From contig NJBF01000020.1 in NCBI GenBank assembly GCA_003144275.1, positions 9,481-73,480 of the forward strand: a stretch of 64,000 nt of DNA, read 5' to 3'. The notes under the pieces are model-generated. The model had not been told where the DNA came from. It saw nothing but the letters and a program-made list of their open reading frames with translations, and ran no database searches. The DNA comes from Candidatus Heimdallarchaeota archaeon B3_Heim. GTDB taxonomy: Archaea > Asgardarchaeota > Heimdallarchaeia > Hodarchaeales > Hodarchaeaceae. Made by a program: the position numbers and the translations under genes. Below, one piece after another: positions 93 to 25,169 of this stretch; the first letter of the stretch is position 1, and each line of letters opens with the position of its first letter.

Positions 93-2069
93 TTGAAGAA
101 AAAAATGTCTTCCTCCAACCATTACAAAAGAGACCTGACAATAATGTTTTCAATTCAAAAAAAAGATGGCTTAGGACGCATAGGTACTATCTTAACGGCT
201 CATGGAAAGGTATCAACTCCTGTTCTATTGCCCGTTATTAATCCTAACAGACAAGAAATACCTCCGGCTGATATGGTTAAGTGTGGGGCTGAAGCATTTA
301 TCACAAATTCATATTTACTTTATCGTGATATTCCTAACAGAGAAAAAGCATTAAAACTAGGATTACATAAATTAATCGATTTTGATGGCCCTATAATGAC
401 AGATTCCGGGGCATTTCAGCTTATGGAGTATGGAGAAGTTTCTATCACAAATTCGTTGATTACTTCTTTTCAGGAGCAAATCCAGAGCGATATTGGAGTT
501 TTTTTAGACATTCCTACTAAACAAGGAGACCTCCAAGAGGTTCAGAATGCCTTGAAAAAAACACTGGTGAGAGCTGATGAACACATTCAGTGCCGAGATC
601 CATCGAGCAAAATTTTATGGGCTGGCCCTATTCAAGGAGGAGAATTTTTAGATTTAGTCGAACAATCAAGCATGGAAATGGCACACAAGGCCTTCGATAT
701 TCATCCAATAGGTTCAGTTGTACCATATTTAGAACGTTATAATTTTGAGACTGTTGTCAAAATGATATTGACTGCAAAAAAGCATCTTCCATTGAATCGG
801 CCGATTCATCTATTTGGAGCCGGTCATCCTATGTTCTTCGCCATTTCAGTCTTTCTGGGTATTGATATGTTTGATTCTGCCGCATATTTCTTGTATGCAA
901 GAAAAAATCGCTATTTAACAGAATTTGGAACTCATTATTTAGATGATCTTCAATATTTCCCGTGTTCTTGCGAAATGTGTCTCTCACATAAGGTAAAAGA
1001 GTTACAACGCCTTGATCATTCAACACGTACTCATTTACTAGCCAAACACAATCTAAATGTAAGCTTTGCAGAACTTCAGAGAGTCAAGCAAGCAATCATT
1101 GAAGGGAGATTGTATGAATTAGTTATGTCTCGGACAATGAATCATCCATCGCTGGCTAGATTAATTCCACATTTATTTGATACCCCCACTTCTAATTTCA
1201 TTGAAACTTTTACGCCAATCTCCTCTAAAAGAGCCAAATTAATTACTCACCCTGCTTTGAAGTTTCATCCACAAATATTGAGATATAAACAACGAATTCT
1301 CAATCGGTTCTATCCGTGGAGTTCCAAACTAATCCTAGCACGTGATTATCGTAAAATCCGATCAACAAAGAATTTTCAAGTACTGAAGATATCACCACTT
1401 TTTGGAGTAATACCAGATGAGTTACAAGGAGTTTACCCACTTGTTCAACATGAAAGAATACCTTTGCATTTTACCGAACAAGATATTGAATTTATTGAAG
1501 AGTTCCTTAGTAAATATAAGGAAAAATTTCAAGCAATAGAACTTCATTCCAACCTAGAAATTAATAGCAATATAATAGATCAATTTAAGATTATGGACAA
1601 AAATAAAAGAACTTCCAAGCCATCCGATGAATTTAAACTCAATGCAATTATAGATTTCCAATTTGGATCGGGTATCCATGAAGTATTTGATGATATGCCT
1701 GTATCTGTGCATCGTTCCCCTAAAACCGGAATCTTAAGAAATTTTACTTATCTGGACAAAATTGTGGGGACCATACGCCCCTCTGATTTTTCCATAATTC
1801 CTTCAAAATCATTTGCTGAAAAACTCTGTAAGCTTATCCCCGCTCCTAAGTTACGTGTAGTCGCTTCAGATGATAGTATTCCTTTTGTTTCTAGAAATAA
1901 AGATCTTCTAGCAAGATTCGTTAAAAATGTGGATCCAGAAATAAAATGTGGAGAAGAGGTGTTTATTGTCGATGACAAAGGAAATTTTATTAATTCTGGA
2001 AGAGCCCATTTATCAGCTTCTGAAATGATCCAATTTAATCATGGTATAGCTGTGAGAGTCCGAAGATGA
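93..2069 (+). CDS. tgtA: Archaeosine tRNA-guanine transglycosylase (ArcTGT) with a C-terminal extension that may include a PUA domain
   Basis: TGT-family N-terminus (DGLGRIGTILTAHGKVSTPVLLPVINP; FDGPIMTDSGAFQL). Zn-binding CxC...C region (FPCSCEMCLSH). At 658 aa it is the long archaeal form. TTG start in the ORF track; the real start may be the downstream MFSIQKKDG. Confidence 0.8.
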   Translation: MKKKMSSSNHYKRDLTIMFSIQKKDGLGRIGTILTAHGKVSTPVLLPVINPNRQEIPPADMVKCGAEAFITNSYLLYRDIPNREKALKLGLHKLIDFDGPIMTDSGAFQLMEYGEVSITNSLITSFQEQIQSDIGVFLDIPTKQGDLQEVQNALKKTLVRADEHIQCRDPSSKILWAGPIQGGEFLDLVEQSSMEMAHKAFDIHPIGSVVPYLERYNFETVVKMILTAKKHLPLNRPIHLFGAGHPMFFAISVFLGIDMFDSAAYFLYARKNRYLTEFGTHYLDDLQYFPCSCEMCLSHKVKELQRLDHSTRTHLLAKHNLNVSFAELQRVKQAIIEGRLYELVMSRTMNHPSLARLIPHLFDTPTSNFIETFTPISSKRAKLITHPALKFHPQILRYKQRILNRFYPWSSKLILARDYRKIRSTKNFQVLKISPLFGVIPDELQGVYPLVQHERIPLHFTEQDIEFIEEFLSKYKEKFQAIELHSNLEINSNIIDQFKIMDKNKRTSKPSDEFKLNAIIDFQFGSGIHEVFDDMPVSVHRSPKTGILRNFTYLDKIVGTIRPSDFSIIPSKSFAEKLCKLIPAPKLRVVASDDSIPFVSRNKDLLARFVKNVDPEIKCGEEVFIVDDKGNFINSGRAHLSASEMIQFNHGIAVRVRR

Positions 2070-4205: not shown

Positions 4206-4958
4206 GTGATTCTTAGACTTTATTTCAAAGTAAAAATTTTCGAGGAAGATTCATTGAGTCAAAATGAAGAGCTAGTTTTTGAAGAGTCGCAACAAGGGAT
4301 CAAAATTGTTATCTGGGGACCAACATTAGCAGGAAAAACGACAGCTTTAAGTTTATTCCATGCAATCAAGAAAAAAGAGGATCCTGAAAGCGTCTATAAT
4401 TTTTTAAAGCTTGAAGATAAAGCTACAGAGAGAACTATCGGTTTTGACCAAGCTACCTTCGGTTTAGGAGGAGGTCCAGGAAAGGGATTTAAGTACCATC
4501 TATTTACAACCCCTGGGCAAGATAGATTTAAATCCATGAGAAAGATTGTAATCAATGGACTTCATGGTCTGATCGTTGTGATTGATTCAGAGAAAGCTCG
4601 ATGGGAAGAGAATAAGGACAGCCTTAAAGAGCTCTTCGAGGTTTCTGGAGATAAAATATATACGGGAGAGATAAAAATCGCGATCATGCTAAACAAAATG
4701 GATTTACCAGTAGAAACTCGTATAAGTGCTGCGGATGTCGGGAGATTAATGCTAGAAGCAGGTGTCTCTACTTCACTACGAGATACATTTGCAAGTACCT
4801 TTGAAGTTAGTTGTTTGAATGCGCTGAGTGCGCTTCGCGAAGCATGGAATAAGGGAGAATGGAACCCAAAACAGCGCCCTCAAGCTGTTCAGAGAATCAT
4901 ACAGCCAATTCAAATGGTTATTCGGGATATTTTGATATCCGAGCTCCAGAAACGATGA
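4206..4958 (+). CDS. MglA-family Ras-like small GTPase
   Basis: G1 GPTLAGKTT matches MglA GPGLCGKTT. Switch I carries an Arg (ERTIGFD against DRTLFFD). G3 is TTPGQ with Thr in place of Asp, as in MglA TVPGQ, and is followed by RK-I-NG-G-VIDS as in MglA. G4 is NKMD. C-terminal extension of about 50 aa. Confidence 0.7.
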   Translation: MILRLYFKVKIFEEDSLSQNEELVFEESQQGIKIVIWGPTLAGKTTALSLFHAIKKKEDPESVYNFLKLEDKATERTIGFDQATFGLGGGPGKGFKYHLFTTPGQDRFKSMRKIVINGLHGLIVVIDSEKARWEENKDSLKELFEVSGDKIYTGEIKIAIMLNKMDLPVETRISAADVGRLMLEAGVSTSLRDTFASTFEVSCLNALSALREAWNKGEWNPKQRPQAVQRIIQPIQMVIRDILISELQKR

Positions 4959-5163: not shown

Positions 5164-7050
5164 ATGAAAAAAAATAAGTTACAAGAAATCGTTGAGGGTC
5201 ACCATAAGATTGAAGAAGAAGAGAGATTGAGGTTTGACCAAAAACCCTCTGAAATTCCACCTCTACCAAAGGGAAAGGCTGCTTTAACCCCCACTACCAA
5301 AGCTGGATGGCAGACTGAAGGAATAATTCGTGCTATTATTTCAAATCTGCATAATGGGAAAGATTGGGAGAAATTATTCATTTATGGGGGTAGTGGAAAG
5401 GTTATGAGGAATTGGAAGGCCTATTACGAAACAATGTATATGTTACAGTCGTTGGAGTCAAATGAAACACTTTTCATGCAGTCAGGGGTTCCCTATGGGA
5501 AAACTATAACTCATCAATTCGCACCTCGGTGTGTTGTGACGAATTCTGTTATTGTACCAAATTGGACGCAATCATTTCAGGAAATGGTTGATGCAGGTTT
5601 GTCAGTTTATGGCCAAATGACCGCAGGTAGCTGGATTTTCATCGGATTACAGGGAATAATTCAGGGTACATACGAAACGATGATATCAGCAATTAAATCA
5701 GCTGAAAAGACTCCAAATTTTAATAAACTAACTGCGTTTGAGCAAAATGTGATTGTTACTGCAGGTCTTGGCTTGATGGGAGGTGCCCAAGCACTAGCTA
5801 TAAAAATGGTCGGGAAAATCGCTCTAATAGCTGAAATTGATCCAACCAATCTAGATCGTATGTTCAATGAAGGTCGGGATGAAGGTACTCCATATTTGGA
5901 TATTAAAGTAGATTCTATAGAGGAAGGAGTTAAAATTGCACGAGAATATGCATTAAAAGACGAACCGACGTCTATTGGCATATTATGTAATGCGGTTGAA
6001 TTACTTGAATATTTAACCATAAATAATATTACTCCGCATGTCCTTACAGATCAGACTTCAGCACATGATATGTTAAATGGATATGTTCCTGCTAACATGA
6101 CATACGAGGAAGCAGTAGAATTAAGAAAAATTAATCCCAAAAAGTATAAGAATTTAGCGTTTAAAACCGTCAAAACACATGTAGAATTAATGGTGGAGTT
6201 ACAGAAAAGGGGAGCTGAAACATTTGATTATGGTAACAATATCCGTACTCAAGCATTTAAGGAGGGTTATAAAGAAGCTTATAAATTCACAGGTTTTGTC
6301 CCCAAGTATATTAGACCGTTGTTTTGTGAAGGAAAAGGGCCATTCAGATGGGCCGCTTTATCTAATAATCCAAAAGACATCTTGATTACCGACAAATATG
6401 CTAAAAGGCTATTTCACGACGATCCGATGTTGCTCAATTGGATTGATCTAGCCTCGAAGTACATTCCTTTTGAAAAAGGACTTCCTGCAAGAGTATTTTG
6501 GGCAGGATACAAAGGTAGAGCTGCATTTGGGATGTTATTGAATAAATTATATTCTGACGGAGCGATAGACGCACCTGTCATTATAGGTAGAGATCATTTG
6601 GACGGGGGATCAGTAGCAAGCCCCTATCGTGAAACTGAAGGAATGAAAGATGGATCTGATGCCATTGGAGATTATCCAGTTTTAAATCTGTTGGGAAACT
6701 CACTTTCTGGGGCAACTTGGGTTAGTTATCACGGTGGTGGAGGTGTTGGAGTCGGGTATTCTCTTCATGCAGGGCAGGTGTGTGTCGCTGATGGAACACC
6801 TCTTGCACAAGAACGACTGTTTAGAGTACTAACATGGGATCCAATGTCAGCAGTCTTACGTCATGCAGCAGCTGGATACGAAAAATCATTGAAATTCGCT
6901 ACAACAAACAAAATTTTGGTTCCAGGAATAACAAAAGACCAAAATGTGAACTATCATAATCTCTATGAGGAATTAGTATCATTAGTTAAAAGACGTACTG
7001 AAATAGACCTATTTCCTCCCTCCAAAAATTTGAATATCAAATTTCTTTGA
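5164..7050 (+). CDS. hutU: Urocanate hydratase (urocanase)
   Basis: 628 aa. NAD-binding and active-site regions including YHGGGGVGVGYSLHAG and GRDHLDGGSVASP. GAGG-like RBS 8 nt upstream of the ATG. Confidence 0.85.
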   Translation: MKKNKLQEIVEGHHKIEEEERLRFDQKPSEIPPLPKGKAALTPTTKAGWQTEGIIRAIISNLHNGKDWEKLFIYGGSGKVMRNWKAYYETMYMLQSLESNETLFMQSGVPYGKTITHQFAPRCVVTNSVIVPNWTQSFQEMVDAGLSVYGQMTAGSWIFIGLQGIIQGTYETMISAIKSAEKTPNFNKLTAFEQNVIVTAGLGLMGGAQALAIKMVGKIALIAEIDPTNLDRMFNEGRDEGTPYLDIKVDSIEEGVKIAREYALKDEPTSIGILCNAVELLEYLTINNITPHVLTDQTSAHDMLNGYVPANMTYEEAVELRKINPKKYKNLAFKTVKTHVELMVELQKRGAETFDYGNNIRTQAFKEGYKEAYKFTGFVPKYIRPLFCEGKGPFRWAALSNNPKDILITDKYAKRLFHDDPMLLNWIDLASKYIPFEKGLPARVFWAGYKGRAAFGMLLNKLYSDGAIDAPVIIGRDHLDGGSVASPYRETEGMKDGSDAIGDYPVLNLLGNSLSGATWVSYHGGGGVGVGYSLHAGQVCVADGTPLAQERLFRVLTWDPMSAVLRHAAAGYEKSLKFATTNKILVPGITKDQNVNYHNLYEELVSLVKRRTEIDLFPPSKNLNIKFL

Positions 7051-7117: not shown

Positions 7118-7585
7118 ATGCTTCCAATCTCTGCAACAGAACCAAAATCTGCCTCCAATTGGCTATCTGAGCATAAAGGAATAAGTTTTTCTTTTGTATT
7201 CGGTATAATTTTCGTAATAATGGAAATACTCGGTATGATCGGAAATTCTATTATTTCCAGCGGCCCAGCCTTAATTATGATGCAAACAGTACTACTACTA
7301 ATTCTCTTCGTGGGCATGATGATATTTATCTATAATTTAGGATATGTTGTCATCATGCTAACGATAGATGAAGGTTTAAATGAGGAAGAAGTAATATTAC
7401 TAAGATGGTTACTTAAACGTGCCATTGGAATATCTGTAATTTGGTTTTTGGGAGTAGTCGTATTAATGCTAACACTTACTCAATATCCTTACTTGCTTGC
7501 TGGAATGAATTGTTTCATATTGGCCTTTTTATTTTATATCATTAGGAAAGGTGAGAATCCTCTTACAGAAGGAACTTCCATTTAA
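7118..7585 (+). CDS. Small polytopic membrane protein (about 4 TM), first gene of the ChlI-vWA operon
   Basis: Hydrophobic segments FVFGIIFVIMEILGMIG, LIMMQTVLLLILFVGMMIFIY, VIWFLGVVVLMLTL and FILAFLFYII. 17 bp upstream of the next gene. Confidence 0.35.
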   Translation: MLPISATEPKSASNWLSEHKGISFSFVFGIIFVIMEILGMIGNSIISSGPALIMMQTVLLLILFVGMMIFIYNLGYVVIMLTIDEGLNEEEVILLRWLLKRAIGISVIWFLGVVVLMLTLTQYPYLLAGMNCFILAFLFYIIRKGENPLTEGTSI

Positions 7586-7601
7586 TTAGCTTACTTTAAT
7601 T

Positions 7602-10577
7602 TTGGATATGTCTTGCATGGTGATTAGAGAAGAAGAACCGCCATTGGTTATGACTCTCTCTACATCAAGTTTTTCTGACTTTGAAGGTAATCATGAGCTT
7701 AAATTATTACTGATTTTACTTGCAATTGATCCCTCAATTTCTGGAATCTTAATTCACGGATCTACGGGAACTGGTAAATCGTTAATTCTTCATTTTTTCC
7801 AACAACTGAAAATTCCAATGGTGAAAAATTCGACCTGCCAGTATAACTGTACCTTGGACAGCAGAGCATTATGTGGTGAGTGCTTGGATAAAAAAAATAG
7901 GGAGATTCTAATCGATCAACAAGATTCTTTTGTTCCAATCGTTAAGATGCCTATACATGCTTCTCTAGATTCGTTAGTTGGCAGTGTCGATATCACATTA
8001 AATTTTCGTCTAGGGATTCTAGGCCAGGTGAACAACGGGTTTTTGATCTTAGACGATCTTCATCTTCTCCCTCAGGAAACCATGAATATTCTTCTAAGTG
8101 CATGGCAATTCAATAAGAACACTATTCAGCGAAATACACTTTCCCTTGAACACCCTAGCAATTTTTGTCTAATTGCATCAATGAATTCTCTCAATTCTGA
8201 AATTTCAGCAAGTTGGGGAGATAAATTTGCTTTTTCTTATCAGCTAAATTATAGAAACACTATTCAAACTAGAATTGAGATTATGGAAAAGAACCTGTTC
8301 GGCAAATTTTCTTCAAATAATTCTAAGACCACTCCATTCTTTGAAGCCTCTTCCTCTCTAATACAAGAAATTGTCCGGTCTAGAGAGAATATCCAGCATG
8401 TAACTATTCCTTCTGACTGCATTACACTTATAGCTAGAATTTGTTCTCACTTTCAAGTAGATGGAGTTCGAGCTGATATTTCGTTAACAAAAGGAGCTAG
8501 AGCTTTAGCTAGTTTTCAAAATTGCAACTCTGTCACAAAAGAAGACATTATCTTCTTGGTTCCGTATATTCTTGCCCATCGTATACCTTTAGATAATCCA
8601 GATGAAATTACACGGGTAATAGACAGACTGGTAACAACTGAAAGTGCAGAATCGAAAGAAAATGAATCAAAAAATGAAGCCATTGATAAAACTCCCTTGA
8701 TTAAAGGGTCTAATCATTTTTTACACAAAACGATTGAAAATTCCGTTAAGTTTGGAAGTATTATAATGATTACTTATATATTAAGTTTAATCATTGTTAG
8801 AATTCTTTCTGTACCAAGTCTACTACCAGTTATCTTTGGATTGGTATTAATATGGGGAATTTGTTCATTCTTACTTTATTTGTGGGTACAGAAAAGGCAT
8901 AAACTGATGACTGAATATGGATTAATCGAGAAAAAGGCTAAATCAACTTCAAATTTAAAATCTTTTTCCCAGGTAAAGACATTTCGATTATCTGATTCCA
9001 CAAAAGAAGATAAGCGGGATATTAAGAGAAAAGTAGAATTTGAACTTGAGGAAGATCAATCCAACAGTGGAAAAATCCTTCGGTTTGTCGGTTTGCAGAG
9101 ACGTAGAGGGCTTATTTCTTTATCTGATAGCCTACGATTTTGGATCATGATATTAGGCCTCTTTATTCTTATCATAACAATCGTGGTTTATACAATGCTT
9201 ATTCTATTAGTTCCTCCTGAATTTTGGTTGACAATTTTCTTTTTCGTTTTCATTTTATTCACAATGGGGTATCTTCGTCAATTAAATCAAGATGAATGGA
9301 AGATCAGAAGAGCTGCAGACGTGGGTGCCTCTCTGGGGGAAACTAGTAAGAAAGTCTCAGATCTTGGAATCGGGTTGCATGTTTCACCATTGGAATTTAA
9401 ACGTACAATGCAAAATACTCAGTCAAAATCTGAACAATCTATCGTGAGCAAATTAGCGAAATTAGATGTAATCAGAAAAGACACCGAGCCGCTCATGGGA
9501 AAGAGCTTTATGGGTGATTTTGGCTCTACAGGTATAGTAAACCATTCCCAGAGAGTTTTAGCCGCGAAATTTCCTCGTCAACCTACCAGAATTGATCCTA
9601 AACGTCAAGCTATGTCTGGAAAAAGAGCTCTGAGTTTAACCTCTTTACAGACAGGTAGAGTGATTGGAGATAAACCATTCAAAGATTTTCCCAAGAGCTT
9701 TCACGTACTAGCAACAATCATTAACTCGTTGAGAAGGAATCCACCACATTTTCATGGTAGCTCTCAACAATCTTTACAATTAGAAATGAGTGATGTTCGT
9801 GAAAAGGTGTTTAGCAGTCGGGTATCAGCAATAATCATATTTGTACTTGATTTATCACAATCAATTGAGAACGTCATAAATACCGTATCATCCTCTGTTA
9901 ACTGGCTTTCTCGTCAAGCATATTTATATCGTGATAGAGTAGGACTTGTGATTTTACAAGGAACTCAAGCTCTTACCATTCAACCCCCTACTTCTAATTT
10001 AAACTTGGTTAAACGTAAATTACGTCGTCTTCGTGTGACTGGATCGACTCCCTTACCTGCTGGTATCCAAAAAGCTATTGAGCTTATTAAAATCGAACGG
10101 ATTCGAAGTAAGAATGAAGTAATTCCAATGATTATCTTAGTTACTGATGGAGCAACAAATATTCCCTTGTTGAAACATCCTGTTACAGGAATTAACCGAA
10201 ATCTTCCCTTAAAAAATCTTGGTATTGACCGTGCGGTTAAGACATCCATAGAGGATTGTCTAACACTAGCTAATCAGATTAAAAGAGAAAAAATATCATT
10301 TAATATATTTAGTGCCAATATAAAGGGTAATGATTTATTTCAAAATATCATTAATGATAATAATCAACCGACGAAAGAATTTTTAACATCTCTAATCTCT
10401 AATAAAAATTTATTTAAAGGAAAGCAATTTATTCAATTATGGTCGTATGCTTTACTAAGAACAATGCAAGAAATCACTCTAGGAAATTTATTTTTATTAT
10501 CAAGTCATCTAACTGATGAGAACTTGGAAACTTTACGAATTGCAAGAGCAGAGATACTTTCCAACATAGACAGGTGA
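7602..10577 (+). CDS. Membrane-embedded ChlI-type AAA+ ATPase fused to a vWA (MIDAS) domain; ChlD/BchD-like with a Cys4 insert and 4 internal TM helices
   Basis: Walker A GSTGTGKS. ChlI signature MPIHASLDSLVGSVDI. Walker B GFLILDDLHLL. Cys cluster CQYNC-x8-CGEC at nt ~7836-7886. Hydrophobic TM block at aa ~385-430 and ~510-560. C-terminal vWA with MIDAS DLSQS (nt ~9850) and VTDGATN. Confidence 0.6.
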   Translation: MDMSCMVIREEEPPLVMTLSTSSFSDFEGNHELKLLLILLAIDPSISGILIHGSTGTGKSLILHFFQQLKIPMVKNSTCQYNCTLDSRALCGECLDKKNREILIDQQDSFVPIVKMPIHASLDSLVGSVDITLNFRLGILGQVNNGFLILDDLHLLPQETMNILLSAWQFNKNTIQRNTLSLEHPSNFCLIASMNSLNSEISASWGDKFAFSYQLNYRNTIQTRIEIMEKNLFGKFSSNNSKTTPFFEASSSLIQEIVRSRENIQHVTIPSDCITLIARICSHFQVDGVRADISLTKGARALASFQNCNSVTKEDIIFLVPYILAHRIPLDNPDEITRVIDRLVTTESAESKENESKNEAIDKTPLIKGSNHFLHKTIENSVKFGSIIMITYILSLIIVRILSVPSLLPVIFGLVLIWGICSFLLYLWVQKRHKLMTEYGLIEKKAKSTSNLKSFSQVKTFRLSDSTKEDKRDIKRKVEFELEEDQSNSGKILRFVGLQRRRGLISLSDSLRFWIMILGLFILIITIVVYTMLILLVPPEFWLTIFFFVFILFTMGYLRQLNQDEWKIRRAADVGASLGETSKKVSDLGIGLHVSPLEFKRTMQNTQSKSEQSIVSKLAKLDVIRKDTEPLMGKSFMGDFGSTGIVNHSQRVLAAKFPRQPTRIDPKRQAMSGKRALSLTSLQTGRVIGDKPFKDFPKSFHVLATIINSLRRNPPHFHGSSQQSLQLEMSDVREKVFSSRVSAIIIFVLDLSQSIENVINTVSSSVNWLSRQAYLYRDRVGLVILQGTQALTIQPPTSNLNLVKRKLRRLRVTGSTPLPAGIQKAIELIKIERIRSKNEVIPMIILVTDGATNIPLLKHPVTGINRNLPLKNLGIDRAVKTSIEDCLTLANQIKREKISFNIFSANIKGNDLFQNIINDNNQPTKEFLTSLISNKNLFKGKQFIQLWSYALLRTMQEITLGNLFLLSSHLTDENLETLRIARAEILSNIDR

Positions 10578-10584
10578 ATAGATT

Positions 10585-11460
10585 TTGAGTAATATTAGTA
10601 TTAACCTCTCAAAACAGGTATTTCTTCAAGGAGAATTAATTAAAGTAAAGATACGGTATCAAAATGAAGATATTCCTATGAAAGAAGGAAAATTATCTTT
10701 TGTCGGAACTGAAAAAGTCGAATTCAATATGCAATCATTTCTCGGGAAAAAAGGATTTCAACCTATTTGGGGAGTTTTTTTACCCAGTAGACATTTTACT
10801 GAAAAAATTGTTTTCTTAGATGAGAGTTATGATATAAATCACTCTGGAGGAGACACTGATGATATTGAAGTCGAAATTCCCACGAATGCTATTCCCTCCT
10901 ATTACGGTGATAATAGCAAAGTCTCATACTTCTTGAAAGTTGAATGCATGAATACTAATAATAAATTTATTCAAGAGGAAATAGAGATTTTGGTTGATCG
11001 AGATTATCAACCCGTACAAAAAGAAGCAACGATTAATATTGAGGATGGGACTCTTTCGTTATCTTATTCAGATCCATTGATTATTAATGCTGTGAACGTT
11101 GTTAACATCACTTCTCACAATTTAAAAATGACAAGCCCGATTCGTTTCTATTTGACAGGGGAAGAAACAGTCACAGCTTCAGGTGTTACTGTAAATAATA
11201 CATTAAAAAAATTGCCTTTAGGCCAAACTTTTGCAGAAGAAGATATTGAGAATTTTGCGATGGAGTTCAAAATTCCTACTAAATATCAGCATGGATATGA
11301 AGGATTGCAATCAAGGGTTGAATATAATATTGAGCTACACTACGTAGATATCCAAACTCGATTGGGGGTCAAGCGGGAAAAAATGAAAAAAATTGACCAA
11401 ATCGCGGTTCAAGTGGATGAAATGAAAACTCATACAAAAAGAAAAGGAGCAAACCTGTGA
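10585..11460 (+). CDS. Arrestin/Spo0M-like two-lobed beta-sandwich protein
   Basis: Each half starts with an arrestin-like signature (KQVFLQGELIKVKIRY; LIINAVNVVNITSHNLKMTSPIRFYLTGEETV) and ends with S-x-V-x-Y-x-L-x-V strands (SKVSYFLKVEC; SRVEYNIELHYVD). Separated by 8 bp from the ChlI-vWA gene. Confidence 0.4.
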   Translation: MSNISINLSKQVFLQGELIKVKIRYQNEDIPMKEGKLSFVGTEKVEFNMQSFLGKKGFQPIWGVFLPSRHFTEKIVFLDESYDINHSGGDTDDIEVEIPTNAIPSYYGDNSKVSYFLKVECMNTNNKFIQEEIEILVDRDYQPVQKEATINIEDGTLSLSYSDPLIINAVNVVNITSHNLKMTSPIRFYLTGEETVTASGVTVNNTLKKLPLGQTFAEEDIENFAMEFKIPTKYQHGYEGLQSRVEYNIELHYVDIQTRLGVKREKMKKIDQIAVQVDEMKTHTKRKGANL

Positions 11461-11491
11461 TGTCTGACAAGATTTTAATAACAGTTAAAAC

Positions 11492-11968
11492 TTGATATTT
11501 TTTTCTCAAGATGAGATGTTTCAGCGAATTTTTGTCCCAATTAAGGATAAAATCTTTACTTGGATCTTTAGGATACTAGTTCTAAGTGTTAGTTTATCAA
11601 TTATCAGTATTTTTGTGACAACTGATATTACTCAACTTGATACACCATTTCTAGATATCTTTATTTCTTCTTTTAGCAATTTTACTTTTTTTCTTGGACT
11701 CATTGCGATTGGTGCAGGTTTAGCAATTGCAATCTTCAAACGGTCTGAACTTACTATTGATGAACAATCCTCCAAGCAGGCGTTTAAACCAAAATATAGG
11801 AAGAAAACAGATAAAATAAAAAAGATATCTGGAAAAGACGAATCTCGAATAACCCCACCATTATTTTCCCCTAGAGAGATAATACTTCTTTCTAGTGGTG
11901 GTTTATCAATTTTGATTGGAATTCTATCTTGGTTAATTTATGCAATCATTGTGGGGTTATTTTTCTAA
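11492..11968 (+). CDS. Small membrane protein (3-4 TM), last gene of the operon
   Basis: Hydrophobic helices RILVLSVSLSIISIFV, FFLGLIAIGAGLAIAIF and LSILIGILSWLIYAIIVGLFF. Confidence 0.3.
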   Translation: MIFFSQDEMFQRIFVPIKDKIFTWIFRILVLSVSLSIISIFVTTDITQLDTPFLDIFISSFSNFTFFLGLIAIGAGLAIAIFKRSELTIDEQSSKQAFKPKYRKKTDKIKKISGKDESRITPPLFSPREIILLSSGGLSILIGILSWLIYAIIVGLFF

Positions 11969-12015: not shown

Positions 12016-12765
12016 TCAGGGCCGCATCAGAGAGAAAAGGATGAGAATTGGAATGGGTGATAAGCCTAGTGCGATAAGAACCGCGTATATACTATAAAAA
12101 TCTCTATTTTGATTGAGGAATGAATAGATGATGATAATTATTTTTTCAAATAATAGAATTAATAGAAAATTATGAAGAACCAAATCGAGAAAAGTTAACC
12201 ATTGAAAATCTATCTTTTCTGTGTTATATTTGGTATACCAAGGTGAAATATCCTGCAATCCCTCATCTAAAATGGTGATTGTTCTTCCCTCTTCTAAGTG
12301 AACTTCTACCCAAGCATGCCACTTACCAATAACAACATAACTATCATACCCTCTGAAAGTAAGAAGGGAACAGGCAACAATGGCCCTTCCATCGCAATCA
12401 TCCGACCCTCGGTTGAGAACTTCTGAAAGACTTGGACGATAGTCCCACGAAAGATAATTAGTGATATCTTCTCCATATTCTATTTCTTGAATGGTAAATC
12501 GTCCTACAGCATATATCTCAAGTTCGATTGGATCACTGGGAAAAGACGACAATGGAACGAATTCATTTGCATAATAGTCTTCAAATTTCGCATTAAACTC
12601 CTCAATTTGAGGATTATCGGGTTGTATGGTTTCGGTAAGGGCAATCCGATTACTAATTTGTCCTGGCCAAGCGAAGGGGTTCGGAGTAAATCCTGTAAAA
12701 AGGTAAATAACTGTAACGAGTCCCGCAACGATTAATTCTTTATGAGTAATTGTAAGGGATCCCAT
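12016..12765 (-). CDS. Transglutaminase-like (papain-fold Cys-His-Asp) domain protein, membrane anchored
   Basis: Core SDDCDGRAIVACSLLTFRGYDSYVVIGKWHAWVEVHLEEGRTITILDEG matches the transglutaminase-like C...H...D pattern. N- and C-terminal hydrophobic helices. Confidence 0.5.
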   Translation of the reverse strand: MGSLTITHKELIVAGLVTVIYLFTGFTPNPFAWPGQISNRIALTETIQPDNPQIEEFNAKFEDYYANEFVPLSSFPSDPIELEIYAVGRFTIQEIEYGEDITNYLSWDYRPSLSEVLNRGSDDCDGRAIVACSLLTFRGYDSYVVIGKWHAWVEVHLEEGRTITILDEGLQDISPWYTKYNTEKIDFQWLTFLDLVLHNFLLILLFEKIIIIIYSFLNQNRDFYSIYAVLIALGLSPIPILILFSLMRP

Positions 12766-12958: not shown

Positions 12959-14971
12959 TTATTTATCTACTTTATTCTCCCCTTTCTCTTTAGAAATTTC
13001 TCCATCTAGTATTTGAGAAATTTTCTCTTGAGCTGCTCTTCGTGAGGCAATAAATCGTTCTATCGAAACTTTTTCTAGTTTATCTGCCATTTCTTGGGTT
13101 AATAATCTTCGTGATGGAGTATTTTCCAACAATCTCCGGAATTTTCCTTGATAGTGGATTGTTGTAAGTAGTAAAGTCAACATTCCTATAAAAAAGATAG
13201 GAATTATATCATAAAACTCTGGTATATTACTGTAACGCACCAAACTACTGTCAAAACTAATAATACTGTTATAGAATGTTACAGCAAGAGAATAGGCCGA
13301 TATATAGTCCATTATATTATATGGTGCTAGAACTTTGAAGTACGATTCATTTATCGAATCAAGATATGCTTGTAAATTTCGATCATAGGCCTTAGTTTCG
13401 ATCACCGCAGAAGCTTGTAGGATTTTTGCCATTCCTGCTTGAAGAAGCATATCAATTTGCCCACGTTGAACGTTATCTTTTGAAAAAATACTAAATCGGG
13501 AAGAATGCGTATAATAAGTCATTGGATCGTTAACAAAATTGCCCAACATGCCAAATTGGAAAGGGTGCATCAATCCAATCTGATGGCCAGTTTCATGAAT
13601 AATTGTTTGAGTTAATCCTTGCAAAGGCTGTGGATTAGAACGGTTATTGCCAAGCATTATTCCATAATCTTGACTGATAATTGTCATTGGCCGATTTTCA
13701 GAGTCTTTCAAAGCTATTCCCACAAGACCAGGTTCCATTTTTGCTTTTTCAGGTATAGCAAAAGTAGCATTGTCGAATAGAAACGCAATTGTTTGAAAAT
13801 GTGTGGTAAAATAAGCTTGATGATCTTGTTCCATGTATCGGTGAGTATTCGTGTATAAATGCTCATATAAAGGTATAAGATCCACAGAATATTCCCAACG
13901 TGATTGTTGATCAAACTCTCCCCAAGGTACAATGGAATCCTGAACCTTTTGGTAGAGATCTGGAATCTCTGTTAAATTTATGAAACGAACAGAAACATTG
14001 ATATCCATCCAAGGTAACACATCCATAAATGTTTCTTTGATAAAGGAAGTATTAACAGTCCAATTAAGGGTTCCTGTGGGAATTCCAGTCATATTATTTA
14101 AGACCAAGATTTCAATTGAAAATTGCAATCCAGTACTTAAATCCCCAACAGGGGTTGGGGGAGCATAAACGAAATCTTGAACCCAAAGATTCCTTTCGAT
14201 CTCATAAATCCATTCACTCAAGTATTCTGCAAGTCTTTTCTTACCGTACTCTGTAGAAAAGTCATATAGCTTTTGCATATCCTGAATAGTACTATTTTGA
14301 CCACTATTTTGTAGAAGATAGGAATCTGCAGAGAGATCAAGATAGTAAAGCCGTTCCTGATCTCCATACCCAATCATGTAATTTCTATTAATCGATTCTC
14401 CAGAATCTGGGTCAATATATGTTGCATTATACCAATGATGCGGATATTGAGTATCATCGATATTTGTAAAATTTGCTAAAATTAACGTGTAGCCAGATGT
14501 TGGAGGAGGCCCTAAATAATTATTATAATTGGTAGATAGCCAGTCGAGTGTTAGATTTGCGGAAATATAACGACCTGTATCACTGGTACCATCAGAATGA
14601 TTTATAGTGTCAGGTTTAGCCGAATTATTAAAAAATGTATACAGTGCGGTGTTAAACTCGTTTGGAGCAAGCTCATATGAATGATTAATATAAAAGGTCT
14701 TATCTGTATACTCTTGATGAAAATAGTTGTAAACATTTCTACCCAAAAGCGAGTTACCTTGAGGAAAGCCTGGAAAACCGATGAGGGGAGAAATTATTGC
14801 GGGATCAAATCCAACGAATACGATACGAGATTCAATAGTACCAGAATCGTAAGGTGGATTTGGTAGAATAAAATATGAACCTTTTACGGTTCCAATATTT
14901 TGAGAAACCTGAAGAGATAATATAAGGACGTATAAAATAATCATTTTTTTAGTATATGTAGCCATTCTCAT
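12959..14971 (-). CDS. Secreted metzincin-like zinc metalloprotease with a C-terminal TM anchor
   Basis: N-terminal signal peptide. Extended zinc-binding motif HETGHQIGLMH (HExxHxxGxxH), rc at nt ~13553-13598. Many NxS/T sequons. C-terminal TM segment IIPIFFIGMLTLLLTTI. Confidence 0.5.
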   Translation of the reverse strand: MRMATYTKKMIILYVLILSLQVSQNIGTVKGSYFILPNPPYDSGTIESRIVFVGFDPAIISPLIGFPGFPQGNSLLGRNVYNYFHQEYTDKTFYINHSYELAPNEFNTALYTFFNNSAKPDTINHSDGTSDTGRYISANLTLDWLSTNYNNYLGPPPTSGYTLILANFTNIDDTQYPHHWYNATYIDPDSGESINRNYMIGYGDQERLYYLDLSADSYLLQNSGQNSTIQDMQKLYDFSTEYGKKRLAEYLSEWIYEIERNLWVQDFVYAPPTPVGDLSTGLQFSIEILVLNNMTGIPTGTLNWTVNTSFIKETFMDVLPWMDINVSVRFINLTEIPDLYQKVQDSIVPWGEFDQQSRWEYSVDLIPLYEHLYTNTHRYMEQDHQAYFTTHFQTIAFLFDNATFAIPEKAKMEPGLVGIALKDSENRPMTIISQDYGIMLGNNRSNPQPLQGLTQTIIHETGHQIGLMHPFQFGMLGNFVNDPMTYYTHSSRFSIFSKDNVQRGQIDMLLQAGMAKILQASAVIETKAYDRNLQAYLDSINESYFKVLAPYNIMDYISAYSLAVTFYNSIISFDSSLVRYSNIPEFYDIIPIFFIGMLTLLLTTIHYQGKFRRLLENTPSRRLLTQEMADKLEKVSIERFIASRRAAQEKISQILDGEISKEKGENKVDK

Positions 14972-22390: not shown

Positions 22391-23437
22391 TTATTTATCT
22401 TTTTTATCAAAGACTTTTGAACAAATTTTATTAATTTCTAAACGAGAAGGAGGTTCTCTCATTCCTCCCTCTCGTGTACGATGAAGGAGAGTTAAATAAG
22501 CACAATTTAGAATATCTTCATTAGTAACTGCGATTCTGCCTTCAAAAGCTGCTTTTGCGCGACTAGAACGAGCTAGGACAATATCACTTCTGAATCCATC
22601 AACCTTTAAATTCATACATATAGTAGAGATATATTTTTTATTATTTTCACTCAGTTGAACTGATGGTAGGAGTTTACGAGCATTATCAATTCTTTCCTGA
22701 ATTTCATCATCCATCTCTCGATATTTTTGTAGCTGTCCGTTGGCCTTTTCCAATACCAAATTTAATTCGATTACCCGTATTCTCTCTTGAATGTCTTGAA
22801 CATTCCCTGCTTCTGCGTATAAACTCAATCTGTCTAATAATTGAGGTCTTAAATCTCCCTCTTCAGGATTCATTGTCCCTACTAATATGAAATTACTGGG
22901 ATGTTGGATTGAAATGTTCTCCCGTTCAATGATATTCCACCCTGAAGCAGCACAATCTAGAATTGTATCAACTAAATGATCTGGGAGTAAATTTATTTCA
23001 TCGATATATAGAATGTCCTGATTCACATAAGCCAATATTCCAGGTGATAAAGCCTCGATTCCAGATTCGATTATCTTCTCAATATCTAATGAGCCAATAA
23101 CTCTATCCTCTGTTGCACCCAACGGTAAAGTGACAATTTTCATTTGTCTCCATGAATGGTCTAGTATAGAATTTTTTGTCATATATTCCTCCCTACAATC
23201 CTCACACATCATATTCGGGTTTTCTGGAGAGCACTGAAATGAGCATTTTCTTACACGAATTTGAGGTAAGACAGAATTCAGTGCTCTTACCAGAGTACTC
23301 TTACCTGTACCTTTAGGACCAGATATTAGCACTCCTCCAATTTTGGGGTCAATAATTGTGAGTATTAAGGCTAATTTAGGATCCGATAAACCGATTAGTG
23401 CTGAAAATGGAAGAATGAACTCGTTTGTGCTATTCAT
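22391..23437 (-). CDS. ChlI/BchI-type AAA+ ATPase (Mg-chelatase I-subunit family) with a Cys4 insert
   Basis: Walker A GPKGTGKST. ChlI signature TLPLGATEDRVIGSLDIEKIIESG. Walker B DILYIDEINLL. Cys cluster CSFQC-x8-CEDC at nt ~23195-23245. C-terminal helical lid with NEDILNCAYLTLLHR. Confidence 0.7.
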   Translation of the reverse strand: MNSTNEFILPFSALIGLSDPKLALILTIIDPKIGGVLISGPKGTGKSTLVRALNSVLPQIRVRKCSFQCSPENPNMMCEDCREEYMTKNSILDHSWRQMKIVTLPLGATEDRVIGSLDIEKIIESGIEALSPGILAYVNQDILYIDEINLLPDHLVDTILDCAASGWNIIERENISIQHPSNFILVGTMNPEEGDLRPQLLDRLSLYAEAGNVQDIQERIRVIELNLVLEKANGQLQKYREMDDEIQERIDNARKLLPSVQLSENNKKYISTICMNLKVDGFRSDIVLARSSRAKAAFEGRIAVTNEDILNCAYLTLLHRTREGGMREPPSRLEINKICSKVFDKKDK

Positions 23438-23678: not shown

Positions 23679-25169
23679 ATGAATGAAAAGAATTTTGAGT
23701 TAACTGGGGAAAATCTCACCATAGATGAATTATATGAAATAATGAAACAAAATTTTGAAATTAAACTATCAGGAAGTGCTCAAGACAAAATAAATCGATC
23801 TGCTCAAATCGTCCAAGCTATTTTAGCTGATAAAAAAAGCATTTACGGAATTACTACTGGATTTGGCTATCTTCAGAAGGTTAATATATCCTTAAATGAC
23901 ACAAAGAAATTACAGGAGAATTTGATTATTAGTCATTCGGCAGGGGTCGGACCTGAATTATCCCATGATATAGTTAGAGGAATGATGGCGTTAAAAATTA
24001 ATAAATTTGCTCGTGGCCATTCTGGAATACGTTTAGCTGTAGTGGATTATCTATTAAAGCTATTAAATAATAATATCATTCCTTCAGTCCCTTCAAAAGG
24101 TAGCTTGGGCGCAAGTGGTGATTTAGCTCCTTTAGCTCATCTATCGTTGGTTTTATTAGGAAAAGGGCATGCTTATCATAACGGAAAGAAGATGACTGGT
24201 GAAGATGCCTTAAAACGTGTTAATTTGAAACCACTTGAACTTATTGCAAAAGAAGGATTAGCTCTACTCAATGGAACTCAAGCAATGACTTCTGTTGCCG
24301 CTTCATCCATTAAGAATGCATATTATCTAGTTAAAATTGCAAACATTGCTACAGCACTGAGTATGGAGATCCATGCGGGTAATTTAGACAGTTTACATCC
24401 TTTGATTCATCAAGCTCGGCCACACAGTGGGCAAATAGAAGCAGCTAGAATGATCTTAGGTTATTTAGAGGGAAGTAAGTGTACACAAAAATTAATTGGT
24501 AGACAAGATGCATACTCAATTCGTTGTGCCCCAGCGGTTCATGGAGCAGTGCACGACACAATCGATCACGCTAAACGAGTAACCGAAATTGAAATGAACG
24601 CATCTACGGACAACCCGTTATTGTTCTCTGTCGATCAAGTTTATAGTGGCGGTAATTTTCACGGAGAACCGATTGCTTTCATATTGGATTTCCTAGGAAT
24701 TGCTCTAACAGAATTAGGTAACATTTCAGAGAGAAGAATCGAGAGATTGTTGAATCCAACGTTAAGTAATCTACCTGCGTTTTTAACCTCTAATACTGGA
24801 CTTAATTCTGGACTTATGATTGCTCAATATACTGCTGTTGCATTAACCTCTGAAAACAGACAGTTATCTACACCAGCCTCTATTGATACTACCTCAGTGT
24901 CTGCAAATCAAGAAGATCATGTCAGTATGGGTATGAACGCGGCGAATAAACTCATAAAAATTATAGATAATCTGCAATATATTGTAGGTATCGAACTACT
25001 ATGCGCAGGTCAAGCGATTGATTTAGCCGATATTAAAGATAAACTTTCACCTCAATGTAAAGAAGTATTCAGAACTATTAGATCACATGTTTCTTATATG
25101 GACCAAGATCGCGAACTGGCTCCTGATATTGAACAGTGTGCTTCATTAATTAAAGAATTTAAATTATAG
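23679..25169 (+). CDS. hutH: Histidine ammonia-lyase
   Basis: MIO-forming ASG triad in GSLGASGDLAPLAHL. Aromatic ammonia-lyase family length (496 aa). Confidence 0.85.
   Translation: MNEKNFELTGENLTIDELYEIMKQNFEIKLSGSAQDKINRSAQIVQAILADKKSIYGITTGFGYLQKVNISLNDTKKLQENLIISHSAGVGPELSHDIVRGMMALKINKFARGHSGIRLAVVDYLLKLLNNNIIPSVPSKGSLGASGDLAPLAHLSLVLLGKGHAYHNGKKMTGEDALKRVNLKPLELIAKEGLALLNGTQAMTSVAASSIKNAYYLVKIANIATALSMEIHAGNLDSLHPLIHQARPHSGQIEAARMILGYLEGSKCTQKLIGRQDAYSIRCAPAVHGAVHDTIDHAKRVTEIEMNASTDNPLLFSVDQVYSGGNFHGEPIAFILDFLGIALTELGNISERRIERLLNPTLSNLPAFLTSNTGLNSGLMIAQYTAVALTSENRQLSTPASIDTTSVSANQEDHVSMGMNAANKLIKIIDNLQYIVGIELLCAGQAIDLADIKDKLSPQCKEVFRTIRSHVSYMDQDRELAPDIEQCASLIKEFKL

Follow-up and report, generated by a model that had tools for sequence, protein, structure and literature searches.

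What does a chelatase-like AAA+/vWA protein do in the membrane, in an operon with an arrestin-fold protein? The question is raised by four genes in a 64-kb stretch of DNA (the window) from Ca. Heimdallarchaeota B3_Heim, a member of the Hodarchaeales and thus the Asgard archaeon that an earlier note on this DNA had supposed.

A four-gene operon and its arrestin-membrane core

The four ORFs that the earlier note had described were all found where it placed them, all on the plus strand (Table 1), with gaps of 16, 7 and 31 bp by the listed starts. Alignment with orthologues makes ATG 7617 a more likely start for p991 than 7602, and ATG 11516 a more likely start for p158 than 11492; the gaps then become 31, 7 and 55 bp. 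Gene order and strand are identical in 10 contigs (B3_Heim and nine other Hodarchaeales contigs). Junctions were measured at seven loci and range from -4 to 30 bp, so that the tight arrangement first noticed in one genome is kept in its relatives. It persists although the operon proteins are only 30-67% identical across loci, whereas an Arf-like GTPase and a urocanase encoded nearby reach 74-95%. The entire ~20-kb block around the operon is syntenic across Hodarchaeales, however, and a conserved neighbourhood by itself is therefore weak evidence of a functional link; the adjacency of the operon genes is in part lineage inertia. Two convergent neighbours, p249 and p670, are also conserved; the first is a transglutaminase-like thiol peptidase of the membrane and the second a surface protein of zincin-like type.

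Table 1. Features of the operon and of the distant ATPase gene, in window coordinates
Feature	Position	Strand	Description	Basis
p155	7118-7585	+	155 aa, small 4-TM membrane protein	ORF list
p991	7602-10577	+	991 aa, membrane-anchored ChlD-like protein	ORF list
p991 AAA+ module and lid	7683-8606	+	residues ~28-335, ChlI/BchI type	
p991 membrane insert	8742-9287	+	two TM hairpins and basic loop	
p991 pre-vWA segment, vWA and C-terminal extension	9597-10574	+		Pfam VWA_2, VWA
p291	10585-11460	+	291 aa, soluble two-lobed arrestin-clan protein	ORF list
p158	11492-11968	+	158 aa, small 3-TM membrane protein	ORF list
p348	22391-23437	-	stand-alone canonical ChlI-type AAA+ ATPase	tblastn paralogue match

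A deeper relative (locus L013) is informative. Here the genes for the 4-TM protein, the arrestin-like protein and the 3-TM protein are contiguous without the AAA+/vWA gene, the downstream context differs, and p249 and p670 are missing as well. Since the trio is intact without p991, we consider the arrestin-membrane trio to be the core and the AAA+/vWA gene an accessory. The p991 gene sits inserted between p155 and p291 in a Hodarchaeales-specific arrestin module. No AAA+/vWA neighbours were found beside the more distant arrestin-domain relatives examined, and the literature searched held no operon linking an arrestin-clan protein, small TM proteins and an AAA+/vWA protein. The architecture of p991 and its operon with an arrestin-fold protein are new.

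A membrane-anchored ChlD-like protein and its candidate motor

The p991 family comprises 12 full-length homologues (41-50% identity), all from Hodarchaeota/Heimdallarchaeota MAGs. Pfam matches in p991 are to Mg_chelatase (residues 48-198), AAA_lid_2 (276-332) and VWA_2 (745-850), and MPIHASLDSLVGSVDI, taken by the earlier note for a Mg-chelatase motif, aligns with ChlI DLPLGATEDRVCGTIDI. The family profile matched residues 8-330 to the ChlI structures 8osf, 6l8d and 1g8p with E~1e-56, whereas the MoxR-like 2r44 reached only 9e-8; by these profiles the AAA+ module is of the ChlI clade, not MoxR. Its nearest relatives outside the family are a TM-bearing ChlD-like protein, P0014 (34% identity), and P0013 (33%), a soluble 787-aa fusion that is 53% identical to p348. 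The best NCBIfam match is TIGR02442, "putative cobaltochelatase" (3e-94, score 316.6 vs a cutoff of 779.45), and BchD-ChlD was also matched (6e-67, 226.8 vs 499.55). In common with ChlD/BchD and TIGR02442 proteins, p991 has an N-terminal ChlI-like AAA+ module and lid, a basic/AAPxQ-like pre-vWA segment, and a C-terminal vWA domain with complete MIDAS.

What sets p991 apart from ChlD/BchD most visibly is the membrane insert, which occupies the position of the acidic/Pro-rich linker; a canonical eukaryotic ChlD (P0024), among the matches, has a poly-Pro/acidic linker there. Hydropathy, the AF2 model and 11/11 full-length homologues agree on four hydrophobic helices (~381-403, 405-428, 512-536 and 540-562), much as the earlier note had proposed, forming two hairpins (residues ~381-430 and ~511-562). 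The corresponding AF2 helices (370-402, 405-438, 509-536 and 539-573) have pLDDT ~70-79 within a low-confidence model of the whole protein (pLDDT 56.5). Between the hairpins lies a basic loop of ~80 aa, predicted to be cytoplasmic, in which SFSxVK and D(I/L)EED motifs are conserved. Given the four TM helices and their basic flanks, both soluble domains probably face the cytoplasm.

The AAA+ module retains an intact Walker A (GSTGTGKS) and the sensor-2 R290, while its Walker B is LILDD (D151 D152), invariant in the family, where ChlI has DE, and in 11/12 members K208 (DKF) stands where BchI has its Arg finger R208 (LLDRF). In 19 other ChlI/ChlD-type modules compared, the finger position is D-R throughout and Walker B is DE in 17, the exceptions being P0014 (ED) and P0019 (DD). 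The earlier designation "ChlI-type" overstates the ATPase because of the Walker B DD and the Lys finger. On its motifs, the module looks like a ChlD-style regulatory module rather than a ChlI-type motor, and in this regulatory rather than catalytic appearance it resembles ChlD itself. Still, Asp for Glu and Lys for Arg do not prove that ATPase activity is lost. A Cys4 insert (C79, C83, C92 and C95) is missing or incomplete in 3/12 members.

Conservation within p991 peaks in the vWA core, with 75% mean pairwise identity and 71/170 columns invariant, vs 50% identity for the AAA+ core. The intact MIDAS reported earlier is well founded: D750-x-S752-x-S754, T816 and D849 are invariant in the 12 members, and the family profile matched the BchD vWA domain (2x31) at 1e-11. 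The preceding segment (residues 666-735) carries GKRAxSxxSxxxGR and an AAPxQ-like stretch. The logic of an AAA+ ring working with a MIDAS vWA that holds on to an acidic client residue, so that the client is remodelled, is shared with NorQ-NorD, CbbQ-CbbO, RavA-ViaA and Midasin/Rea1. Some MoxR-class AAA+/vWA pairs are also membrane-acting, as for NorB and for ViaA with the inner membrane (PMC9489729), but p991 differs from them in that its AAA+ module is of the ChlI clade and is fused to the vWA domain via TM helices.

As with ChlD/BchD, the B3_Heim genome has a separate canonical ChlI-type ATPase. This protein, p348, lies 11.8 kb from the operon and was overlooked by the earlier note. Its motifs are canonical (Walker A GPKGTGKS, Walker B YIDE, Arg finger LLDRL, sensor 2 DGFRSD), and it matched TIGR02030 (3e-109) and TIGR02442 (3e-124), both under cutoff. 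No vWA gene adjoins p348; a vWA region lies immediately downstream in 66/80 of its closest metagenomic relatives, and at another locus (L006) a ChlI-type ORF 45% identical to p348 lies immediately before the gene for the TM-bearing P0014. We infer that p348 may serve p991 in trans as its motor. Because p991 has substitutions in its catalytic site and a complete ChlI-type ATPase is encoded 11.8 kb away, a ChlI plus ChlD-like pair is likelier than a self-sufficient motor.

The arrestin-clan protein and the small membrane proteins

For p291, the Arrestin_C match scored 26.4 bits, slightly below the cutoff of 27.7; across its family Arrestin_C and Arrestin_N were each matched in 9/11 members (best E-values 2.9e-9 and 3.2e-7, respectively), with Rgp1 matches also present. 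All of the top 50 Foldseek matches in the PDB were arrestin-clan proteins, and the arrestin/Spo0M-like two-lobed fold predicted earlier is upheld by both lines of evidence. The subfamily is very narrow and divergent, with eight representatives among 1.84 billion. A PxNAIPSYYG strand motif is invariant in the family, and loop 46-73 (QSxxGKxGFxP...P..H) is highly conserved and modelled at low confidence. Like other members of the clan (Vps26, alpha-arrestins/TXNIP, visual/beta-arrestins, bacterial Spo0M and Asgard arrestin-domain ESPs), p291 has two beta-sandwich lobes, and, as with arrestins and Vps26, there are membrane proteins, here encoded by adjacent genes, whose cytoplasmic tails it could bind. 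Unlike them, it has neither a Vps35/Vps29 context nor a GPCR-like partner.

The flanking genes do encode small polytopic membrane proteins, as the earlier note had it. By hydropathy, p155 has four TM helices (predicted N-in/C-in) and a conserved acidic loop, DEGLN(E/D)EE (residues 84-91), predicted to be cytoplasmic; its C-terminal tail, (R/S)xGENPL(T/V)EG, is conserved as well. Its orthologues at eight loci are 53-67% identical and that of L013 37%, and both acidic motifs are retained in L013, where p991 is missing. No Pfam, NCBIfam or PADLOC family was matched. The 3-TM p158 (hydropathy) has a conserved SNxxF in TM2, and FxPxYK lies in its basic loop on the cytoplasmic side; orthologues (30-40% identity) are found in all loci, including L013.

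What the p991 machine may act on

Our preferred reading, offered tentatively, is that p991 is part of a ChlI/ChlD-like machine that is tethered to the membrane and would engage the arrestin/membrane-protein module through its MIDAS domain, rather than of a conventional metal chelatase. In this model the AAA+ module of p991 would bind nucleotide and be a poor or regulated hydrolase, given its Walker B DD and Lys finger; p991 would be scaffold and regulator, the part that ChlD plays, and p348 would supply the motor, as ChlI does for ChlD. The MIDAS of the tethered vWA domain could capture an acidic client residue at the membrane surface, with p291, or else p155 through its conserved acidic loop and C-tail, as the leading candidates. 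ATP turnover would then remodel the arrestin/p155/p158 complex by assembly, release or conformational switching, in the way that ChlID acts on ChlH, NorQD on NorB, CbbQO on Rubisco and Midasin on Rsa4/Ytm1. There are precedents for such AAA+/vWA-MIDAS client remodelling in NorQD (PMC9976466, PMC13036017), CbbQO (PMC4660213) and Mdn1 (PMC8837202). The membrane remodelling or quality-control role that the earlier note put forward has the standing of a guess.

The trio of L013 has no adjacent p991, and p991 may therefore serve another client. It is conceivable, if on the whole unlikely, that p991, with or without p348, works independently of the arrestin module on other membrane-proximal clients such as p249 and p670. 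L013 lacks all three of these genes yet keeps those for p155, the arrestin and p158, but this co-absence comes from a single genome. p249 has weak Pfam TGL matches and an invariant triad-like DDCDG...KWHxWxE motif, and an AAA+/vWA protein beside a membrane-anchored TGL-fold protein with its Cys-His motif intact recalls the predicted MoxR-vWA-YebA(TGL) membrane-proximal degradation system, in which the association is strict (Zhang & Aravind 2012, PMC3495828). The YebA-type system, however, uses MoxR rather than a ChlI-clade AAA+, and its TGL domain is cytoplasmic, whereas the positive-inside rule places the p249 TGL domain and the p670 ectodomain outside the cell, across the membrane from the probably cytoplasmic domains of p991. 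Both genes also lie on the strand opposite to p991, whose spacing to its flanking genes stays at -4 to 30 bp despite 41-50% identity. Membership of p991 and p348 in the chelatase clade would also fit a metal-cofactor insertion chaperone, in which p348/p991 would load a metal ion into a membrane protein (p155/p158 or another), after the example of NorQD with NorB or ChlID with ChlH, and the arrestin-like protein would be the adaptor. Metal insertion is a recurrent task of AAA+/vWA pairs (PMC9976466, PMC13036017), and the tether would put the machine beside a membrane client. We regard this as improbable: the operon encodes no metalloenzyme, the p155/p158 alignments have no conserved His/Cys/Met clusters suggesting a metal site, and conserved polar motifs are limited to acidic loops.

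Least probable, and indeed very doubtful, is that p991 is the D subunit of a conventional class I (ChlH/CobN-dependent) chelatase with its large partner elsewhere and its neighbours incidental. The best NCBIfam matches are to chelatase families, the ChlI-type p348 gene is within the window, and some p348 relatives share loci with ORFs of ~1240-1260 aa, about the size of CobN. Yet the scores fall far under the family cutoffs, TM helices replace the linker, Walker B and Arg finger are altered across the family, and the conserved operon that holds p991 encodes unrelated partners, an arrestin-fold protein and small membrane proteins. As the earlier note had observed, no ChlH/CobN-like ORF occurs anywhere in the 64 kb, where the largest ORF (1052 aa) is a subtilase, which makes a conventional chelatase unlikely. 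There is a slim chance that p991 is instead a static scaffold, a pseudo-ATPase whose MIDAS would hold the arrestin-like protein, or some other acidic ligand, at the membrane with no ATP step or ChlI partner. The DE-to-DD and R-to-K substitutions, the far stronger conservation of vWA than of AAA+, and the location of p348 outside the operon would all suit a scaffold. But the substitutions are conservative, not destructive, and Walker A, sensor 2 and many core positions are invariant; the invariant columns of the AAA+ core (27/188) and lid (13/70) argue for retained nucleotide binding and oligomerisation. For a machine that engages the arrestin module, p291 itself offers a weak lead: among its positions invariant in p991-containing genomes, 8/18 in the C-lobe but only 4/32 in the N-lobe are changed in the p991-less orthologue.

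A ChlD-like protein with transmembrane helices in its linker

The earlier note described a four-gene operon at 7118-11968, and all four open reading frames were found there on the plus strand (see the table): p155 and p158, which encode small membrane proteins, p991, an AAA+/vWA protein, and p291, which is arrestin-like. Orthologue alignment and local sequence suggest that the true starts of p991 and p158 are ATG 7617 and ATG 11516, and the tight packing of the genes holds with either set of starts. The stretch from the p291 stop codon to the likely start of p158 contains a T7 run (11497-11503) with TTTAATAA upstream of it, and p158 could have its own promoter in the B3_Heim genome; in other loci the p291-p158 gap is -4 to 22 bp. 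Candidatus Heimdallarchaeota archaeon B3_Heim has a protein 100% identical to p291, which makes the host an Asgard archaeon, as had been supposed, and close homologues come without exception from Hodarchaeota/Hodarchaeales MAGs.

Features of the operon and its surroundings (window coordinates)
Feature	Position	Strand	Description
TGT paralogue 1	93-2069	+	archaeosine-type; TGT, C2, PUA domains
Small GTPase	4206-4958	+	Arf/Ras-like
Urocanase (hutU)	5164-7050	+	directly upstream of operon
p155	7118-7585	+	ORF call
p991	7602-10577	+	ORF call
Cys4 cluster	7836-7886		p991 residues 79-95; C-x3-C-x8-C-x2-C
p291	10585-11460	+	ORF call
Conserved loop	10720-10803		p291 residues 46-73
p158	11492-11968	+	ORF call
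p249	12016-12765	-	249-aa membrane protein; transglutaminase-like Cys/His motif, invariant DDCDG, KWHxWxE
p670	12959-14971	-	670-aa, zincin-like, signal-anchored, C-terminal TM helix; HExxH motif (IHETGHQIG)
p348	22391-23437	-	348 aa; paralogue, from tblastn with p991 against the window
Histidine ammonia-lyase	23679-25169	+
Glutamine synthetase	26582-27925		among histidine-utilisation genes
Amidohydrolase	27948-29234	+	imidazolonepropionase-like
TGT paralogue 2	44028-45944	-	archaeosine-type; DUF5591, C2, PUA domains

The Pfam matches of p991 are Mg_chelatase, AAA_lid_2 and VWA_2. A profile of its family of 12 full-length members gave matches of E~1e-56 across residues 8-330 to the ChlI/BchI structures 8osf, 6l8d and 1g8p and a match of 1e-11 to the BchD vWA domain (2x31), and the MIDAS residues D750, S752, S754 (DxSxS 750-754), T816 and D849 are invariant in the family alignment. 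These results bear out the reading of p991 as a ChlI-like AAA+ N-terminus joined to a C-terminal vWA domain with an intact MIDAS, the combination found in D subunits of the ChlD/BchD/CobT type. Unlike those subunits, p991 has no soluble acidic/Pro-rich linker, and it scores far below the cutoffs of both BchD-ChlD (TIGR02031; 6e-67, 226.8 bits, cutoff 499.55) and the NCBIfam model TIGR02442, 'putative cobaltochelatase' (3e-94, 316.6 bits, cutoff 779.45). Mean pairwise identity within the family is 75% for the vWA core versus 50% for the AAA+ core. Placement of the AAA+ module in the MoxR clade was rejected: the MoxR-like structure 2r44 was matched by the family profile at only 9e-8, the Pfam AAA_5 match is sub-threshold, and the best matches are ChlI/BchI.

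The term 'ChlI-type ATPase', which the earlier note had applied to p991, holds for the fold of the module but not for its active site. Catalytic residues were located by HMM alignment to 1g8p. Walker A is intact and the sensor-2 R290 is retained, but the Walker-B Glu is replaced by Asp across the family (D151 and D152 are invariant), and the Arg finger, R208 in BchI (LLDRF), is K208 (DKF) in 11 of the 12 members. Among 19 comparison ChlI/ChlD-type modules, the finger D-R is present in every one and Walker B reads DE in 17, the exceptions being P0014 (ED), a ChlD-like protein discussed below, and P0019 (DD). The ChlI/BchI catalytic signature (Walker B hhhhDE plus Arg finger) is missing from the p991 family, and both of its elements are found in p348, a second ATPase of the window. 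We infer that the AAA+ part of p991 probably binds nucleotide and has a regulatory role like that of ChlD, and that it is not a motor in its own right. Inserted in this module is a Cys4 cluster, absent or incomplete in three of the 12 family members and present in p348, P0013 (a soluble 787-aa fusion), P0014 and P0016; from its sequence it looks like a Zn-ribbon typical of this archaeal ChlI subgroup (p991, p348 and outgroups).

Between lid and vWA domain, p991 has four hydrophobic helices arranged as two hairpins, with a basic loop of ~80 residues between the hairpins. This insert is consistent across hydropathy, the helices of the AF2 model and all full-length homologues (12/12 family members); the full-length model (pLDDT 56.5) was too poor for fold searching and served for helix positions only. 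The stretch from helix 4 to the vWA domain includes two segments, a conserved GKRAxSxxSxxxGR and an AAPxQ-like one. Since soluble relatives such as P0013 share this arrangement, the transmembrane block lies exactly at the site of the acidic/Pro-rich linker of ChlD, and a canonical eukaryotic ChlD (P0024) has a poly-Pro/Glu linker at that position. The earlier proposal that transmembrane helices replace the linker thus stands. The even number of helices and the basic flanking residues suggest that both soluble domains are cytoplasmic.

The two flanking proteins are indeed small and polytopic. p155 has four TM helices, a conserved acidic loop (DEGLNEEE) and a conserved acidic C-tail (GENPLTEG), and both loop and tail are predicted to face the cytoplasm. 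In p158 there are three TM helices, and its basic loop includes FxPxYK. Neither matched a family in family-model searches. The idea that p155, p158 and the TM region of p991 are paralogues was rejected, as hhalign probabilities were <1% and BLAST gave no match.

The arrestin-fold protein and its conserved neighbours

The two-lobed, arrestin-like fold suggested for p291 was recovered by structure prediction. p291 itself scores 26.4 bits against Pfam Arrestin_C, just below the 27.7 cutoff, and its orthologues match Arrestin_C (9/11, best 2.9e-9), Arrestin_N (9/11, best 3.2e-7) and Rgp1 (7/11). The family profile had no significant match among PDB sequences, so the fold was shown via the structure model instead. 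The AF2 model (pLDDT 73.8) has two beta lobes. Foldseek discriminated well: each of its top 50 PDB matches is a Vps26, a TXNIP or an arrestin (best E 1e-10), and the matches cover both lobes. A difference in the angle between the lobes of the model keeps the TM-scores low. An exhaustive search of 1.84 billion representatives with the family profile returned eight members, one unrelated 662-aa protein and five weak matches (E 2e-6 to 7e-4), the latter being bona fide Arrestin_N+Arrestin_C proteins. A word-indexed profile search gave 17 close proteins, and a scan of genome contigs placed the subfamily in only five Hodarchaeales species; none of these three scans found a wider distribution. p291 is therefore a member of the arrestin clan, in a narrow, divergent Hodarchaeales subfamily. 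Around two remote arrestin relatives there was neither an AAA+/vWA gene nor any comparable small TM gene. Among the p291 neighbours examined, no Vps35/Vps29 homologues were identified.

One loop of p291 (residues 46-73) is strikingly conserved, with ten invariant residues (F47, Q50, S51, G54, K55, G57, F58, P60, P67 and H70), and is unplaced by the model (AF2 pLDDT below 50). It is retained in P0044, an arrestin orthologue without p991, and may be a partner- or membrane-contact loop.

The order p155, p991, p291, p158 was found again in nine other contigs, two of them cut upstream within the p991 homologue, and the seven loci measured have junctions of -4 to 30 bp, so the neighbourhood is kept in relatives, a point that the earlier note had wanted checked. 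Conservation alone is weak evidence here, since a whole ~20-kb block is syntenic (TGT, B3_4, PIG-L, Arf-like GTPase, urocanase, the operon, two convergent genes and Opp ABC). Within this block, the operon proteins are 30-67% identical across relatives, versus 86-96% for the flanking GTPase and 74-83% for urocanase.

A deeper relative (locus L013, urocanase 66% identical) is more informative. Homologues of p155, the arrestin and p158 are contiguous there, with 35 bp between the first two and the acidic motifs of p155 kept; there is no AAA+/vWA gene or remnant of one, and the downstream genes differ. The arrestin-membrane trio is thus a stable core, and p991 is an accessory that was either inserted in Hodarchaeales or lost in the L013 lineage. 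At otherwise invariant positions, the L013 arrestin is changed at 8/18 in the C-lobe versus 4/32 in the N-lobe, a weak lead that the C-lobe of p291 may face p991.

A possible role at the membrane

We suggest that p991 may work with p348. This protein is a canonical ChlI-type ATPase (Walker B DE, finger LLDRL, sensor 2; TIGR02030 3e-109) with no vWA gene adjoining it. Of the 80 metagenomic proteins most closely related to it (44-52% identity), 66 are followed directly, on the same strand, by a vWA region, as a separate protein of ~270-316 aa, a ChlD-sized gene or a fusion. P0013 is one of the two closest relatives of p991 outside its family, and its N-terminal module shares 53% identity with p348. 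Outside the family, the AAA+ module of p991 is matched best by P0014, the only non-family ChlD-like protein in the p991 hit list with hydrophobic linker helices; transmembrane insertion in a ChlD linker is therefore not unique to Hodarchaeales. Directly upstream of P0014 is a canonical ChlI-type open reading frame 45% identical to p348. Together, these contexts make a pair of ChlI (p348) and membrane-ChlD (p991) plausible. The locus concerned (L006 1-3058, ENA metagenome) consists of the ChlI gene followed by the 814-aa P0014, with 2-3 hydrophobic linker helices, Walker B ED and an intact Arg finger.

Our model follows AAA+/vWA systems in which the handling of clients through a MIDAS is established, namely NorQD (PMC9976466, PMC13036017), CbbQO (PMC4660213) and Mdn1 (PMC8837202). 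p991 would sit at the cytoplasmic membrane face and pair with p348 as ChlD does with ChlI, its MIDAS site would hold on to an acidic residue in either the arrestin-like protein or the p155 tail, and the arrestin/p155/p158 complex would be assembled, released or switched in a manner coupled to ATP turnover. We hold this outline tentatively, at somewhat short of an even chance. The fuller version, in which p291 serves its own pair of small membrane proteins as their adaptor in the cytoplasm and an AAA+/MIDAS machine, embedded in the membrane and derived from ChlI/ChlD, switches its engagement, is unlikely to be correct in all its parts.

p991 might instead be independent of the arrestin trio and tied to its convergent neighbours, a rather improbable reading. 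p249 is a membrane transglutaminase-like protein with invariant motifs and p670 is zincin-like, both are missing from L013 together with p991, and p991 and p249 recall the predicted MoxR-vWA-TGL degradation system (PMC3495828). Both genes are on the opposite strand to p991, however, and the domains of their products are extracellular by predicted topology; in the MoxR-vWA-YebA(TGL) system the TGL peptidase is not convergently transcribed as p249 is but belongs to the same operon and has its catalytic domain in the cytoplasm, and the positive-inside rule would put the TGL-like domain of p249 outside the cell. Strand and predicted topology led us to demote this analogy. A NorQD-like role of p991 in metal insertion seems quite unlikely, and it is more doubtful still that p991 is a static pseudo-ATPase tether. 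Least probable is a conventional chelatase with CobN encoded elsewhere: the linker consists of TM helices, catalytic residues are altered, the scores fall below family cutoffs, and CobN is absent from 64 kb. The earlier note had reported no ChlH/CobN-like subunit in the window, and we likewise found none among the window's open reading frames or in the ~20-kb syntenic loci.

The eukaryotic signature proteins of Asgard archaea include arrestin-fold proteins, and the host order is thought to be the archaeal order closest to eukaryotes. To our knowledge, nothing is known of arrestin-fold protein function in archaea. In the literature searched, no paper linked arrestin-fold with AAA+/vWA proteins in prokaryotes, and for Asgard arrestin-domain and Vps26-like proteins it offered no more than their listing as signature proteins. 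As kinds, the ChlI/ChlD clade and the arrestin clan are both known; what is new is the TM-linked ChlD architecture and the operon partnership with an arrestin-fold protein. This operon family is restricted to one order, and its function is what we infer here. The locus ties an arrestin-fold protein to two specific membrane proteins and, in most Hodarchaeales, also to an AAA+/vWA machine, providing concrete, clonable partners for interaction and structural tests of Asgard arrestin-fold proteins. It also documents recruitment of the ChlI/ChlD AAA+/vWA clade to the membrane via insertion of TM helices in the linker, and p991 extends the 'AAA+ plus MIDAS adaptor' principle of ChlID, NorQD, CbbQO and Midasin. 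If the adaptor and switch reading is true, a prokaryote would have an arrestin-cargo system under ATP control; this would place these signature proteins of Asgard archaea in a functional context for the first time and give the chelatase AAA+/vWA clade a role other than chelation. Should the link prove wrong, the locus would remain a clear case of a ChlD derivative that is membrane-anchored and lineage-specific.

Other features of the locus

The scan of the window gave no tRNA and no Rfam family. An anti-phage defence system was rejected, as the PADLOC defence models gave one marginal, unrelated match only (E 7e-4). p249 and p670 occur in all 10 contigs with p991, and L013 has neither. Urocanase separates the operon from an Arf/Ras-like small GTPase, two genes upstream, that is unusually conserved in Hodarchaeales (86-96% identity) and keeps 80% identity in L013. 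The histidine-utilisation genes do not form a cluster but lie scattered about the locus, and two paralogues of the archaeosine-type tRNA-guanine transglycosylase family lie within the window.
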